Source of the DNA: Acidobacteriaceae bacterium
Lineage (GTDB): Bacteria > Acidobacteriota > Terriglobia > Terriglobales > Acidobacteriaceae
Reading direction: 5' to 3'
Assembly (NCBI GenBank): GCA_027307045.1
Contig: DAHUXR010000006.1
Coordinates: 14,185-78,184, forward strand
Length of the DNA stretch: 64,000 nt
Positions 26,645 to 35,974 of this stretch are shown here, one piece after another. The position numbers were made by a program, and so were the translations under genes. The notes under the pieces are model-generated. The model made no database searches and was not told the DNA's origin. It saw nothing but the letters and a program-made list of their open reading frames with translations. The number at the start of each line of letters is the position of its first letter. Positions within the stretch are counted from its first letter, which is position 1.

Positions 26645-26719
<75 letters not shown>

Positions 26720-31975: not shown

Positions 31976-32131
31976 AGCTTTTTTCTGAAATCCCGAATCC
32001 GCCCAGCGGGTGAGGGAACCCTATTACAACTTAGGGAATCGCAACTTGCGCAGCGCGATGCATATCGGCAAAAGCGGACTGCGTAGTAACGATAAGGTTC
32101 CCTCGCTACGCTCGGGATTACAGAAAAAGCT
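31976..32131. repeat. Long imperfect palindrome filling the convergent gap (SPOR gene / Moco gene)
   Basis: Outer arms 'agcttttttctgaaatcccga' (31976-31996) and 'tcgggattacagaaaaagct' (32112-32131). Inner arms 'gagggaacc' (32012-32020) and 'ggttccctc' (32097-32105). No U-tract lies outside the stem. Confidence 0.6.
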
Positions 32132-32756
32132 AGTCCGTATCAAACCGCTGTTCCAGAAATGGATCGCCATACATGTGATAGCCGTTCTGCTCCCAGAAAC
32201 CGGGAACATCGTGCTCTGTAAACTCCAGTCCCCGCACCCACTTCACTGATTTCCACGCATAAAGATGCGGCACAATCAAGCGGAGCGGATAGCCGTGGTC
32301 GGCAGTGAGCGGCTGGCCGTCATGGTGCGTGGCAAAGAGAACATCGCCGCGGTCAAGATCGATTAAAGGCACGTTGGCGGTGAAGCCCTGTTCGGCATGT
32401 ACAAGAACGTACTTCGCTTCCGGCTTAAGTTTCACCAGCTTAAGAACTTCCTGGAATGCAACGCCTTGCCAGTCATTGTCAAAGCGGCTCCAGCGTGTGA
32501 CGCAGTGGAAGTCACTGTGGGTTTTGACTTTGGGCAGCTTGTTGAATTCGTCCCATTTGAGCCGCAGCGGCTGTTCTACCAGTCCGCGAATGTGGAAGTC
32601 CCAACGCGCAGGATCAAACCGTGGTATCGACCCGTAATGCAAAACAGGCCATTTTAGCGTGAGTGACTGGCCGGGCGGCAGACGTCCTGCCTGGAGCACC
32701 TGCTGCTCTTTTTCTTTGCGTTCATTGCCGGAAAAGATGCCGATGTCGTCGTCCAT
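32130..32756 (-). CDS. Sulfite oxidase-like molybdopterin oxidoreductase (single Moco domain)
   Basis: 'RLPPGQSLTLKWPVLHYGSIP...W.F.I.GLVEQPLRLKWDEF..LP....HSDFHCVTRWSRFDNDWQGV' matches the short sulfite-oxidase-like family pattern as I recall it. Confidence 0.8.
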   Translation of the reverse strand: MDDDIGIFSGNERKEKEQQVLQAGRLPPGQSLTLKWPVLHYGSIPRFDPARWDFHIRGLVEQPLRLKWDEFNKLPKVKTHSDFHCVTRWSRFDNDWQGVAFQEVLKLVKLKPEAKYVLVHAEQGFTANVPLIDLDRGDVLFATHHDGQPLTADHGYPLRLIVPHLYAWKSVKWVRGLEFTEHDVPGFWEQNGYHMYGDPFLEQRFDTD

Positions 32757-32895
32757 GGGGACATTTTAAATGCTTTGGTACGAGGCGATTGCAGGAAAGC
32801 AAACCTTGATTTTCTTTCACCCTGATGAGACTCCCGCCGTAGGGCTGCGGTTAAATAGATGCTCCCATCATTGGCATTGCGCGAAAGAAGAATAT

Positions 32896-32924
32896 TTGAC
32901 TGTCCCGCGTCTCAGGTGTAGGAT
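32896..32924 (+). promoter_or_regulatory. Candidate sigma-70 promoter for the Cys/Met mini-ORF
   Basis: -35 'ttgact' (32896-32901), 17-nt spacer, -10 'taggat' (32919-32924). The implied TSS is only ~5 nt before ATG 32936, so the leader would be very short or absent. No SD is visible. Confidence 0.3.
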
Positions 32925-32935
32925 TTGACACTCAG

Positions 32936-33040
32936 ATGCAACAGTTATTCACCAACCCGGCTTTCGCCAGCAACATGGCCATGTGTTGCTGTATGTGTAT
33001 GTGTACACGCGAGCGGCCGGTGCTGAGCAATTTTTCTTAG
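32936..33040 (+). CDS. Candidate 34-codon leader peptide MQQLFTNPAFASNMAMCCCMCMCTRERPVLSNFS
   Basis: Hand-translated ATG..TAG ORF, too short for the track. It carries 5 Cys and 3 Met in 8 consecutive codons (32981-33004). It is followed by a stem-loop plus T5. The coding call rests on context only. Confidence 0.45.
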   Translation: MQQLFTNPAFASNMAMCCCMCMCTRERPVLSNFS

Positions 33041-33071
33041 ATTTAGACTCAGATTTAGACCGGGGCCGCTC
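33011..33071 (+). promoter_or_regulatory. Candidate antiterminator pairing (segment 2 : segment 3)
   Basis: 'gagcggcc' at 33011-33018 (codons E26-R27-P28 of the mini-ORF) is identical to the 3' terminator arm (33077-33084). It can therefore pair with the 5' arm 'ggccgctc' (33064-33071). The two structures are mutually exclusive. Confidence 0.45.
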
Positions 33072-33089
33072 AAAGTGAGCGGCCTTTTT
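33064..33089 (+). terminator. Intrinsic terminator between the mini-ORF and the ATP-grasp gene
   Basis: 'ggccgctc' + loop 'aaagt' + 'gagcggcc' + 'ttttt'. An 8-bp GC-rich stem is followed directly by T5. Confidence 0.7.
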
Positions 33090-33139
33090 GCTTGGCTTCT
33101 CACACGGGACAAGCGGCGCCTCTCAGGAAAGAGGAAGGC

Positions 33140-34105
33140 ATGTCAAAGCTGAAGAAGCCAATCGCAATTTACTATGAACACCCGCACTGGTTCGTTCCGC
33201 TCTTCAAGGAGCTGGAGCGCCGGGGAGTTCCATTCGTCCGCATTGACGCGGCCCAACACCATTTCGATCCTGCCCATTTGAATGGCGAAGGCGGATACTC
33301 ACTGGTGTTCAATCGAATGAGTCCTTCCGCCTATCGTCGAGGCCACGGCCAGGCAATCTTCTACACGCTCTATTACCTCGACCATCTGGAGCAGCGTGGC
33401 AAGCGAATTGTGAACGGACAAAAGGCGTTTCGCTATGAGACATCGAAAGCCCTGCAGCTTTCACTGCTTGAGAGGCTTGGACTTCCCTATCCTAAGAGCC
33501 GCGTAATCAATAACCCTGCTGACGCGGTGCAGGCTTCTGAAGGGCTGCGCTTCCCTATCGTGGTGAAGCCGAACATTGGCGGCAGCGGCGCCGGCGTCAC
33601 AAAGTTCAATTCGTGTCAGGAACTTGAGGCTGCGGCCAAAGCAGGCACGCTCGATCTAGGCCTGGACACAACTGCTTTAGTGCAGGAATTCATTCCTGCG
33701 CGCGGCGGCCATATTGTTCGGGTTGAAGTAGTCGGCGGTAAGTTTCTCTACGGAATCAAAGTCCACCTTACCGGTGAAACCTTCGATCTCTGCCCGGCGG
33801 ACATCTGCAAGACCACAGGCGGCCAGGAACTGGCCCGGGCAGCATGCCCCGTCGATGCGCCGAAAACGGGCCTTAAAGTTGAGGGCTACACGCCATCGGA
33901 CGAAATTATTCAGCAAGTCGAACGCATCATGCAGGAAGCGCAAATTGAAGTTGGCGGCATTGAGTACATCATCGATGATCGCGACGGCAAGCTTTATTTC
34001 TATGACATCAACGCGCTTTCTAACTTTGTTGCTGACGGACCGAAGGTAGTTGGCTTTGATCCGTTCGTGCGGTTAGTGGACTTTCTGGAAAAGGAGGCCG
34101 TGTAA
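33140..34105 (+). CDS. ATP-grasp domain protein (RimK/glutathione-synthetase-like ligase fold), substrate unknown
   Basis: 'FPIVVKPNIGGSGAGV' P-loop-like strand, 'ALVQEFIP..GGHIVRVEVVGGKFLYGI', 'GGIEYIIDDRDGKLYFYDINALSNF' (Mg/ATP-binding end of the ATP-grasp fold). The track start (TTG 33092) abuts the terminator. ATG 33140 has SD 'gaggaagg'. Confidence 0.8.
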   Translation: MSKLKKPIAIYYEHPHWFVPLFKELERRGVPFVRIDAAQHHFDPAHLNGEGGYSLVFNRMSPSAYRRGHGQAIFYTLYYLDHLEQRGKRIVNGQKAFRYETSKALQLSLLERLGLPYPKSRVINNPADAVQASEGLRFPIVVKPNIGGSGAGVTKFNSCQELEAAAKAGTLDLGLDTTALVQEFIPARGGHIVRVEVVGGKFLYGIKVHLTGETFDLCPADICKTTGGQELARAACPVDAPKTGLKVEGYTPSDEIIQQVERIMQEAQIEVGGIEYIIDDRDGKLYFYDINALSNFVADGPKVVGFDPFVRLVDFLEKEAV

Positions 34106-35151
34106 TGCGATACGGATATTGGCTTCCTGTTTTCGGTGGCTGGCTGCGCAACGTGGAAGATGAGCAGATGGAAACCAGCTGGGCATACGTCAGCCGGCTG
34201 GCGCGGCGCAGTGAAGAGATCGGCTTTGACCTCACGCTGATTGCCGAACTCAACTTGAATGACATCAAGGGCCCGGAAGAGCCATCGCTCGACGCATGGT
34301 CTACGGCTGCGGCGCTGGCCGCTGTGACACACCGGCTTGAACTGATGGTGGCAGTGCGGCCCACGTTCCACAATCCCGCGCTGCTGGCCAAACAGGCGGC
34401 AAATATCGACCACATCAGCAATGGCCGCGTTTCGCTAAATGTAGTTTCATCATGGTGGGCAGAGGAAGCGCGGAAGTATGGCGTGCAATTTGATAAGCAT
34501 GATGATCGCTATGCCCGCACTTCAGAGTGGCTGGACGTGGTGGACCAGGCATGGAGACACGATCACGTAAATTACGACGGCAAATATTACAGAGTTGACG
34601 ATCTAGTCTTGCAACCCAAGCCAGTGTCGCACCCACGCCCGGTAATTTACGCCGGTGGAGAATCAGAAGCAGCGAAGAACCTAATTTCGCAGAAATGCGA
34701 CGCGTACGTGATGCACGGCGACCCGCCAGAAAAGATCCGCGAGAAAGTCCGCGATCTCTCCGCTCGTCGCGAAAGATGGGGACTGCCGCCCATGCAATTC
34801 GGCGTGGCGGCATACGCTATTGTGCGCGATACCGAGCGCGAAGCCCAGGACGAACTGCGCCGCATCACTGACGTGCAACAGAACGCAGCCGGATACCAGA
34901 ATTACCAGCAATGGCTGGCTAACACGCAACTGGAGCAGCGCGTGTCTCTTGAAGATTACTCGGTCTCGAATCGCGGCCTGCGGTCCGGGCTTGTGGGAAC
35001 TCCGGAGCAGGTGGCAGAGCGCATCGCCGAATTTGAAGCTGCCGGCGCCGACTTGTTGCTATTGCAATTCAGCCCTCAGATGGAAGAGATGGAGCGGTTT
35101 TCACGCCAGGTAATCCGGGCCGGTGCGCGGGTACTTGCCCACGCAGTTTAA
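34105..35151 (+). CDS. LLM-class (luciferase-like) flavin-dependent monooxygenase, SsuD/SfnG-like by recollection
   Basis: 'YGYWLPVFGGW', 'NGRVSLNVVSSWW', 'HDDRYARTSEWLDVV', 'RPVIYAGGESEAA' and 'GLVGTPEQVAERIAEF' occur in the order I recall for FMNH2-dependent sulfonate/sulfone monooxygenases. The ATG overlaps the ATP-grasp stop (TAATG). Confidence 0.8.
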   Translation: MRYGYWLPVFGGWLRNVEDEQMETSWAYVSRLARRSEEIGFDLTLIAELNLNDIKGPEEPSLDAWSTAAALAAVTHRLELMVAVRPTFHNPALLAKQAANIDHISNGRVSLNVVSSWWAEEARKYGVQFDKHDDRYARTSEWLDVVDQAWRHDHVNYDGKYYRVDDLVLQPKPVSHPRPVIYAGGESEAAKNLISQKCDAYVMHGDPPEKIREKVRDLSARRERWGLPPMQFGVAAYAIVRDTEREAQDELRRITDVQQNAAGYQNYQQWLANTQLEQRVSLEDYSVSNRGLRSGLVGTPEQVAERIAEFEAAGADLLLLQFSPQMEEMERFSRQVIRAGARVLAHAV

Positions 35152-35207
35152 AACGAGGTTCGCGTCCCGCGAAACTGAGGAGTTGCCCCCAGGCTGCTCT
35201 TCAGATA

Positions 35208-35246
35208 GCAGACGAGCTTCATGCTCCTTCCCGGAAGCTCGTCTGC
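35208..35246. terminator. Perfect 13-bp hairpin between convergent genes (bidirectional terminator candidate)
   Basis: 'gcagacgagcttc' (35208-35220) pairs with 'gaagctcgtctgc' (35234-35246), with a 13-nt loop. There is no clean U-tract. Confidence 0.5.
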
Positions 35247-35290
35247 TTGCAAATTTCCTGTCCAGAACCCACGCTGGCCTTTTCGCCCCA

Positions 35291-35974
35291 TCAGAAACTT
35301 GTCCGTATATTTAAGTAAGCGAAAAGTCGTGTGACATCGACAAGGCCAGTGTGCGAAAAATCGTTCACAACCATGTCAGCGCCGGCTTGCTGTAGCATGG
35401 ATTCCCTTCCGTTGGCAGCGAGGCCCACACACTTCATTCCCGCGCTCTTGGCTGCAAGCACACCGGCAACGGCATCTTCGCATACCAAAATTTGACTCGC
35501 ATCGACTTGCAAGATCTGGGCGGCCAGCAAAAACAGAGACGGATCAGGTTTGCCCCGCTCGACGTCATCTCCTGTCACGACGGCGCGAAAACGATCGCGC
35601 AGATTGAAAAACTCCAGAGCCTGCTCTACTCGTCCGCGGCTACCGGAAGTTGCCACTGCGCTCGGCAATGCCACTGCATCAAGCTGCAGGAGAAATTCGG
35701 CAAATCCCGGGACAAGCTTCAATTCACCGGCACGAACCTGAAACAGTCTGTCCTTTTCAGCACCGTAACTCGCGGCTTCTTCTGGAGTGAGTTCACCGAG
35801 AAAGCGTTTCAATATGTCTTCGCGCTTTGCTCCTTCCCGGACAAAAGAAAGCTCCGCGTCACTGAATGCTTTACCTTTGGTCAGCAAAAAGGACTTCCAA
35901 GCCTGCATGTGCGCAGGATGGCTATCTACGATGACTCCATCAAAGTCGAATATTACAGCGCCAAGCATCCGCAT
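35291..35974 (-). CDS. HAD-IA hydrolase (beta-phosphoglucomutase-like)
   Basis: Motif I 'VIFDFDGVIVDS', 'ATSGSR', and 'GKPDP...CEDAVAGVLAAKSAGM'. ATG 35974 lies just after the upstream stop (35977). The track start 36022 overlaps that gene. Confidence 0.8.
   Translation of the reverse strand: MRMLGAVIFDFDGVIVDSHPAHMQAWKSFLLTKGKAFSDAELSFVREGAKREDILKRFLGELTPEEAASYGAEKDRLFQVRAGELKLVPGFAEFLLQLDAVALPSAVATSGSRGRVEQALEFFNLRDRFRAVVTGDDVERGKPDPSLFLLAAQILQVDASQILVCEDAVAGVLAAKSAGMKCVGLAANGRESMLQQAGADMVVNDFSHTGLVDVTRLFAYLNIRTSF

Follow-up and report, generated by a model that had tools for sequence, protein, structure and literature searches.

A predicted cysteine-codon attenuator in the leader of an ATP-grasp–flavin monooxygenase operon of Acidobacteriota

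We have analyzed a stretch of 64,000 nucleotides (nt) of DNA from an Acidobacteriaceae bacterium (GenBank assembly GCA_027307045.1, contig DAHUXR010000006.1, positions 14,185 to 78,184 of the forward strand). We refer to this whole stretch as the window, and give all positions in its own numbering. The subject is a leader at 32896–33089 that contains a promoter-like sequence, a short open reading frame (sORF) with a run of cysteine codons, and an intrinsic terminator. It precedes two genes, encoding an ATP-grasp ligase and a luciferase-like flavin monooxygenase (LLM). Comparison of the leader with those of orthologous loci suggests that it is very probably a ribosome-mediated, Cys-codon transcription attenuator that reads the charging of tRNA-Cys and controls the ATP-grasp–LLM operon. 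The decisive evidence against a chance arrangement is the recurrence of the whole module in about 68 of 80 species-level genomes; the evidence from the window alone is modest.

The leader and its conservation

The leader begins with a promoter-like sequence on the forward strand, found by pattern scan at 32896–32924, with a −35 box TTGACT and a −10 box TAGGAT separated by 17 nt. This is the single sigma-70-like match within 32000–35500. The AUG of the sORF lies 11 nt past the end of the −10 box, which would give the mRNA a 5′ leader of about 4–6 nt, taking the transcription start site from the predicted −10. The sORF has 34 codons on the same strand (32936–33040), from ATG at 32936 to TAG at 33038–33040, with the peptide sequence MQQLFTNPAFASNMAMCCCMCMCTRERPVLSNFS. 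Its codons 16–23 (32981–33004) read M-C-C-C-M-C-M-C, with Cys codons at 32984, 32987, 32990, 32996 and 33002; this run is the proposed stall site. The octamer GAGCGGCC is found within the sORF at 33011–33018 and again at 33077–33084, with its complement at 33064–33071. A pattern scan identifies an 11-base pair (bp) terminator stem with a 3-nt loop at 33062–33086, followed by T5 at 33085–33089. The sORF, the codon run, the internal octamer and the terminator had all been described in a first-pass annotation made from the DNA letters alone, and each is present. The two extra G-C pairs that it placed across a 2-nt bulge are also found, with one U-A pair besides. It had further described the sORF as nearly leaderless and lacking a Shine-Dalgarno (SD) sequence. 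None is seen ahead of the sORF in the window, and the short 5′ leader predicted from the −10 box agrees with that description.

Taken by itself, the window gives modest statistics. Within the 64 kilobases there are 7 copies of the octamer, compared with 3.9 expected, which is a small excess. The minimum-energy fold of 32930–33095 has z = −2.76, and consists of a hairpin at 32957–33020 (formed by the segments called 1 and 2 below), followed by the terminator. Most other runs of TGY triplets in the window fall inside open frames of 60–130 codons, and none of them belongs to a short Cys-run leader reading frame of comparable kind. At the Rfam gathering thresholds the sole match in the window is a tRNA gene at 26645–26716, and there were no matches in 17 related loci. 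A scan of the leader (32850–33250) ranked by E-value gave best values of 0.12–2, far under the gathering thresholds, with Trp_leader at E = 2.

A scan using one genome per species gave 80 loci with an orthologous ATP-grasp gene, mostly from Candidatus Angelobacter and other Terriglobia (Acidobacteriota). In about 68 of the 80 the sORF, the Cys run, the internal octamer (segment 2) and the terminator are found as a set some 100 nt ahead of the ATP-grasp gene, and the module is kept whatever lies further upstream of that gene. Both the mini-ORF and the duplication of the octamer are therefore retained, which the first-pass annotation had proposed to look for in orthologues. Within 64 close loci, a short reading frame with a Cys/Met run ends about 95–115 nt before the ATP-grasp start in 62; variants of the leader are found in seven loci (L044, L066–L069, L071 and L075). 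A −35/−10 pair ends 10–15 nt before the aligned start codon in 52 of the 64 leaders, and this position of the −10 box suggests a leader of 3–8 nt rather than none. Of the aligned start codons, 58 are ATG and 5 are GTG. The more distant phyla among the 80 loci have no leader sORF, from which it appears that the leader is an add-on to the operon and not a partner of the enzymes.

The 58 unique leaders have sORFs of 27–48 amino acids, and the Cys codons are always kept: the 14 codons that precede segment 2 include 3–7 of them (median 5). At the Met positions within the run the orthologues often have Thr, Leu, Pro or Ile codons instead. The first-pass annotation had proposed that both Cys-tRNA and Met-tRNA are sensed. 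Its Cys component is supported. Met sensing is doubtful given that the Met codons can be replaced by these residues, and by Ser and Ala in GC-rich relatives. In these leaders 79% of the Cys codons are TGT (TGT 233 : TGC 61), as against TGC 122 : TGT 58 in the long reading frames of the window. This might reflect a preference for the minor, wobble-read codon at the proposed stall site, or alternatively a need for UGU to pair with ACA or GCA in segment 1.

Conservation of the sORF follows the pairing segments. Its N-terminal half drifts, as does the peptide sequence that lies outside the segments. The conserved residues coincide with segment 1 (N-P-A) and segment 2 (E-R-P). The third positions of the GAG, CGG and CCG codons of segment 2 have entropies of 0, 0.13 and 0.55 bits respectively, compared with 0.8–1.5 bits in the flanking codons. 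The octamer falls in a different reading frame in L066, and just past the stop codon in L067. On this comparison of sequences, segment 2 is conserved as RNA and not as peptide.

Five loci come from bins assigned to other groups (L032, Limnocylindrales; L036, Verrucomicrobiia; L051, Actinomycetota; L059, Chthonomonadaceae; L060, Saccharimonadales). Their ATP-grasp proteins are 81–85% identical to that of Angelobacter, and the same leader is present in all except L059. The contigs probably belong to Terriglobia and were mis-binned.

Alternative pairings and ribosome position

The leader can be divided into four segments, all on the forward strand. Segment 1 (32957–32991) has an outer arm CCGGCUUUCGC (32957–32967) that pairs with segment 2, and an inner hairpin (32968–32991) in which the Ala-Ser-Asn-Met codons pair with the Met-Cys-Cys-Cys codons. 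Segment 2, GCGAGCGGCCGGU (33009–33021, with the core octamer at 33011–18), has either segment 1 or segment 3 as its partner, the latter giving the antiterminator. Segment 3, ACCGGGGCCGCUC (33059–33071), forms the 5′ arm of the terminator and is also the segment with which segment 2 can pair. Segment 4 (33077–33089) comprises GAGCGGCC and the U5 tract, i.e. the 3′ arm and tail of the terminator, the loop being 33072–33076. The loop of the 2:3 antiterminator includes a spacer hairpin CUGAG/CUCAG (33023–33052) that contains the stop codon (33038–40). This region also has an exact 10-nt direct repeat, AGATTTAGAC, at 33039–33048 and 33051–33060. The first-pass annotation had suggested that it could be a protein-binding site. 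The repeat is present in the window but is not kept in the orthologues, where only CUCAG (33048–33052) and its partner CUGAG (33023–27) are conserved in the close clade, and we have therefore rejected it as a protein site or a conserved part of the system.

The terminator stem GGCCGCUC/GAGCGGCC is invariant in the approximately 68 loci, while its loop varies freely in length and sequence, and a U-rich tail follows the hairpin in most of them. Analysis of the 64-leader alignment with RNAalifold recovered only this invariant terminator, and the alternative helices were therefore tested separately. Folding restricted to the sORF portion places segment 2 in a helix with an upstream segment in 62 of 64 loci. 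The outer 1:2 helix is 84% paired in the alignment, compared with 35–49% in slid controls; five of its pairs are changed on both sides, and its covariation score exceeds that of 499 of 500 shuffles. The 2:3 core is 91.6% paired over 64 leaders, yet it is uninformative by itself because it is invariant. Such invariance is expected of a sequence that serves three partners. The segment 2 variants GGGCGGCC, GAGUGGCC and GGGCGGUC are still compatible with segment 3 through G-U pairing. Beside the core, an extension of 3–6 bp covaries between leaders (GGUG/CACC, GGUA/UACC, AGUGA/UCACU, GGUC/GAUC, UGGCG/CGCCA and UGAC/GUCA), and in 5000 of 5000 permutations the pairing of the native extensions was better than that of extensions combined across loci. 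Compensatory changes, which the first-pass annotation had proposed to seek between the octamers, are thus absent from the core and present in the adjoining extension. The 1-2-3-4 attenuator logic that it put forward is supported, with every part conserved in about 68 loci and covariation in both the 1:2 helix and the 2:3 extension.

The calculated energies for the window are −14.3 kcal/mol for the outer 1:2 stem, −15.0 kcal/mol for 2:3 and −19.2 kcal/mol for the 3:4 terminator. The energies of the Escherichia coli trp leader are similar in scale; there too 3:4 is the most stable helix and the switch is kinetic. Folding of the whole leader at equilibrium under ribosome masks was rejected as a test, since the switch would be kinetic, and was replaced by folding of the transcript without segment 4. 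With a ribosome placed on any of Cys codons 1–3, 2:3 forms in 55–60 of 65 leaders. Moving the ribosome to the last Cys codon lowers this number to 27 of the 65, in keeping with the earlier guess that a ribosome at that position covers segment 2.

The position of the stop codon requires a change to the model as first proposed, in which a ribosome at the stop would cover segment 2. In the window the stop codon lies 18 nt past segment 2 and 18 nt ahead of segment 3. This placement is conserved: in the 58 unique leaders the stop codon is 4–19 nt (median 19) past the segment 2 core GAGCGGCC and 21–39 nt (median 25) ahead of the GCCGCUC of segment 3. At 18 nt beyond segment 2 a terminating ribosome does not cover it, and sits instead in the antiterminator loop. 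On steric grounds, its presence in the loop may block 2:3 pairing.

From these features we infer translation of the sORF, stalling and termination, in the following scheme. Transcription would start a few nt before the sORF. If no ribosome is present, or if the ribosome has moved past the Cys run, segment 2 would be unavailable to segment 3, being held by segment 1, covered by the ribosome, or parted from segment 3 by a ribosome on the stop codon. The 3:4 hairpin and U tract would then form, and transcription would end near 33089. When Cys-tRNA is scarce the ribosome would stall on the first Cys codons (32984–32996), covering segment 1 and freeing segment 2. Pairing of 2:3 before segment 4 is made would preclude the terminator, and RNA polymerase would read into the operon. 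Under this model a change of segment 2 from GAGCGGCC to GAGCCGCC would give constitutive termination.

Two further helices lie around the start of the ATP-grasp gene on the forward strand. Segment 5, UUGCUUGGCUUCU (33088–33100; consensus UGGCUGCU), pairs with segment 6 (33153–33167), which consists of ATP-grasp codons 5–10 (K-Q/K-P-I-A). In the window the pairing is between UUGGCUUCU (33092–33100) and AGAAGCCAA (33153–61), the latter lying in codons 5–8 with consensus AGCAGCCA. The 5:6 helix is 81% paired, compared with 12–53% in slid controls, with a compensatory swap from G-C to U-A in eight sequences, found in the clade of the window, and it encloses the SD and start codon of the ATP-grasp gene. 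The SD itself, AGAGG (33130–34), pairs with an anti-SD CCUCU (33119–23) in a hairpin spanning 33119–33134. This helix is 80% paired as against 45–64% when slid; its covariation score exceeds that of 498 of 500 shuffles, with examples such as GUCCC/GGGAC and CUCC/GGAG across the leaders. Segment 5 nearly duplicates segment 3, the terminator arm, and pairs with segment 4 in 55 of 63 leaders once 2:3 is forced; in the clade of the window a G-to-U change within it leaves 5:6 in place and weakens 4:5. The 5:6 and anti-SD helices might either add a further level of regulation or act as a brake that is always on. We also considered a dual model in which 2:3 pairing leads to 4:5 and so opens the ribosome-binding site, controlling both transcription and translation. 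This was rejected, as forcing 2:3 gave no gain in accessibility of the SD and AUG (0.446 with 2:3 forced, 0.462 with 3:4 forced).

Target operon and rival readings

The first gene under the proposed control encodes the RimK-like ATP-grasp ligase (33140–34105, forward strand), which falls below the cut-off of every NCBIfam equivalog model. It has three invariant Cys residues (C218, C223 and C236), and scores 31.8 bits against the ATP-grasp ribosomal peptide maturase model TIGR04187, for which the cut-off is 350. The second gene encodes the LLM, a member of the SsuD/SfnG/MsuD desulfonating group (34105–35151, forward strand). It overlaps the first by one base, and a converging gene for a HAD-hydrolase follows. 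The best scores of the LLM are to the SfnG and SsuD models, under their equivalog cut-offs, and its closest solved structures are PDB 3rao (1.5e-126), 8vw6, annotated as an alkanesulfonate monooxygenase (4.6e-102), and the SfnG structure 8t0u (1e-51). Its relationships suggest that it probably releases sulfite from organosulfur compounds. The literature on PDB 8VW6 and on a link between the ATP-grasp–LLM pair and sulfur was uninformative, LdmS of Staphylococcus aureus providing an analogy only.

The LLM gene adjoins the ATP-grasp gene in all 80 loci, including those in Gloeobacterales, Gemmatimonadales, Polyangia and Bryobacteraceae bins. The LLM is 73–99% identical even in cyanobacterial, myxobacterial and Gemmatimonadota bins where the neighborhoods are otherwise unrelated, and in other phyla without such an sORF the pair is 64–83% identical. 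The Cys plus Met contents of the two proteins of the window are 1.9% and 2.0%, compared with a median of 3.3%, and rank 7 and 8 of 43 in the window. A similar depletion is known for some sulfur-starvation proteins, and the low content offers weak support for a role in sulfur limitation. The divergent molybdopterin oxidoreductase gene, which the first-pass annotation had brought in as a sulfite-oxidase-like part of the context, is present only in the closest relatives, and was rejected as part of the system.

Several observations weigh against the Cys-codon attenuator. There is no SD before the sORF and the transcription start site is placed by prediction, so that translation of the sORF rests on the conservation of its reading frame. 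When segment 4 is present the terminator wins at equilibrium under every ribosome mask, which means that the switch must be kinetic. In the transcript lacking segment 4, 2:3 is still favored when no ribosome is present (55 of 65 leaders), and untranslated transcripts would thus be terminated only if 1:2 persisted as a kinetic trap. Neither the terminator nor the 2:3 core shows covariation of its own, both being invariant. In other phyla the neighbors of the gene pair encode aminopeptidase P, transketolase, Dus, MazG, IspG and a CN-hydrolase, and are not sulfur genes. Lastly, the organism is uncultured and its lineage is known only from metagenome-assembled genomes.

The features of the leader might be read in other ways. 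Control could be mainly translational, with stalling opening the ATP-grasp gene's ribosome-binding site and the hairpin and U tract secondary. The covarying anti-SD:SD hairpin and the long-range 5:6 helix do close the initiation region of that gene, segment 5 can take segment 4 once 2:3 has formed, and there is a precedent in Ms5788A of Mycobacterium smegmatis (bioRxiv 10.1101/834739). We nevertheless consider this improbable. The computed accessibility of the SD and AUG is not raised when 2:3 is forced, the segment 5 change in the clade of the window preserves 5:6 at the expense of 4:5, and termination best accounts for an invariant GC-rich stem with a U tract that recurs in about 68 loci. 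It is less probable still, and hardly to be expected on the conservation data, that the GGCCGCTC-N-GAGCGGCC element is bound by a protein or metabolite as an operator or a riboswitch-like fold, with the reading frame incidental. The inverted repeat is invariant and palindromic, as the sites of dimeric regulators can be, and the octamer is not rare in the window. Yet the leaders retain the reading frame with an aligned start, a Cys run in that frame and a stop codon confined to a narrow range of positions, the loop of the hairpin is free to vary in length and sequence with a U tract after it, and the leader scan gave no Rfam match. The same layout, an octamer, its complement and the octamer again (X..X′..X), precedes trpS in other contigs together with Trp-Trp codons, in the textbook arrangement of an attenuator.

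Alternatively the sORF might encode a functional Cys-rich micropeptide, either a metal-binding peptide or the precursor of a ribosomally made, post-translationally modified peptide (RiPP) acted upon by the ATP-grasp enzyme and monooxygenase, with the hairpin doing no more than setting the ratio of precursor to enzyme transcripts. A conserved reading frame directly upstream of an ATP-grasp gene and followed by a hairpin is what is found for many RiPP precursors. There is a moderately conserved xRNLS/P-like tail at the C terminus, and the sub-threshold maturase match could be taken in the same sense. However, the conserved residues are those of the RNA pairing segments, with frozen synonymous sites, and segment 2 persists even where it is read in a different frame (L066) or lies past the stop codon (L067). 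The Cys codons vary in number (3 to 7) and in spacing, the enzyme pair is kept in other phyla lacking the sORF, the two-gene operon includes no protease or exporter gene, and the same leader core is found ahead of a cysK operon elsewhere. This makes a micropeptide very unlikely, somewhat more so than predominantly translational control.

Known systems and related leaders

The predicted attenuator has the architecture of the trp, his, leu, thr, ilv and pheA attenuators of Proteobacteria. These also have a short leader reading frame with regulatory codons, pairings 1:2, 2:3 and 3:4 that exclude one another, and an intrinsic terminator ahead of the first structural gene. Their switch is likewise kinetic, with the terminator more stable than the other hairpins. 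The leader described here differs in that it would sense Cys, and its sORF lacks an SD and begins about 4–6 nt from the inferred transcription start. Its stop codon is 18 nt past segment 2 inside the antiterminator loop, while theirs is just before segment 2, and its target is a putative scavenging module and not a biosynthetic operon for the sensed amino acid. The S-box riboswitches (SAM-I, for S-adenosylmethionine) and the Cys and Met T-boxes of Firmicutes similarly control sulfur operons by premature intrinsic termination that is relieved when sulfur amino acids are scarce. There the sensor is a SAM aptamer or directly bound uncharged tRNA, whereas here it would be the translating ribosome.

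Closer parallels are found among leaders with Cys codons. In Rhodobacterales, uORFC-8-2 upstream of cysS is a predicted attenuator in which Cys codons lie within a stem and a terminator and its U run come next (Brewer et al. 2021, PMC8632094). It shares with our leader the predicted ribosome-mediated attenuation, the conserved Cys codons and the terminator with its U run. It is alphaproteobacterial, with two tandem Cys codons as against 3–7 here, and controls the Cys-tRNA synthetase gene; a relationship in sequence is not evident, as judged without a covariance model. The ‘Cys ribulon’ of mycobacteria, of which Ms5788A is a member, consists of leaderless poly-Cys sORFs that act by SD sequestration and not by termination (Canestrari et al. 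2020, bioRxiv 10.1101/834739). These too are Cys-run first cistrons at or near the mRNA 5′ end, where stalling derepresses downstream sulfur and cysteine genes, and Ms5788A controls a cysA2-like sulfurtransferase, as the leaders from GC-rich contigs described below would do. Their control is translational, whereas the present leader is centered on an invariant intrinsic terminator and the computed accessibility is unchanged between its states. For the cys and cbs operons of Actinobacteria, Cys leader peptides without terminators have been predicted and a Rho-dependent mechanism proposed (Seliverstov et al. 2005, PMC1262725). These are likewise short reading frames with Cys runs near the stop codon, upstream of cysteine-metabolism genes, but they have no recognizable terminator or antiterminator, whereas all four segments are present here.

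The mechanism is thus already known in kind, while the sequence family, the host lineage and the target operon are new. The first-pass annotation knew of no Cys-codon attenuator in Acidobacteriota; no description for this phylum was found in the literature searched, although Cys-codon attenuators are known elsewhere from the three studies cited above. In a 2010 survey hardly any of the attenuators predicted in Acidobacteriota had an assigned function (PMC2965389). The regulatory RNA of this phylum is almost unexplored, and the leader provides a well-supported example with a readable signal. As an attenuator it would label a widespread, unnamed gene pair as regulated by cysteine or sulfur limitation. 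It would also mean that Cys sensing by ribosome stalling can operate through intrinsic termination with a full 1-2-3-4 switch, and not solely by SD masking as in mycobacteria.

A scan of metagenome contigs for GAGCGGCC-N30-60-GGCCGCTC-N3-12-GAGCGGCC gave at least 120 loci. Among the matches listed, at least 30 have an ATP-grasp gene downstream and at least 4 more are truncated copies; about 75 are chance matches or unrelated hairpins. At least seven of the matches listed are in GC-rich contigs (about 65%), which we call class B: L093 (8573–8651, reverse strand), L102 (452–531, reverse), L124 (2720–2795, reverse), L132 (2701–2779, reverse), L136 (257–331, forward), L143 (727–806, reverse) and L200. 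Their leader peptides have the form ...SCSCACxGxCACACCM(T/K)HERPG...*, with 5–10 Cys codons, and GAGCGGCCGG is read as E-R-P. The core is GAGCGGCCGG / GGCCGCUC / GAGCGGCC, with the same terminator followed by T7–9. The codons between the Cys codons are for Ser and Ala and not Met, which argues that Cys is the residue sensed. Class B leaders precede a gene for a rhodanese sulfurtransferase, with a reductase of the NirA/Sir family after it in the longer contigs, and L093 adds cysteine synthase A (cysK; TIGR01139, above the cut-off). The nearest named relatives of the sulfurtransferase are from Gemmatimonadaceae (72–76% identity), and the contigs are probably from Gemmatimonadota. The recurrence of a poly-Cys leader with this core ahead of cysteine-metabolism genes in another phylum supports the attenuator reading as an independent replicate.

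It is possible, though we regard it as rather doubtful, that poly-Cys attenuators built on the GAGCGGCC / GGCCGCUC core form a family spanning phyla, with the present leader as the branch that serves the ATP-grasp–LLM pair in Terriglobia, and with another branch serving a sulfurtransferase–sulfite reductase–cysK operon in Gemmatimonadota-like bacteria. This would constitute a termination-based, ribosome-sensed Cys ribulon of soil bacteria. If so, the ATP-grasp and SsuD/SfnG-like pair would be a sulfur-starvation module, and the 5:6 helix and anti-SD hairpin would be a second, translational layer on the same switch.

At least three other matches (L199, L189 and L163) have leaders with W-W or W-R-W, ending ...FWWQLTL* or ...SWRWPSL*. 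The stop codon overlaps GAGCGGCC, and the same terminator comes next. L199 precedes a gene for tryptophan-tRNA ligase (trpS; above the cut-off), and the genes after L189 and L163 appear to resemble it. These three have the form of ordinary Trp attenuators, and their use of the same octamer is probably a coincidence; their common layout indicates that the X..X′..X architecture is typical of attenuators.

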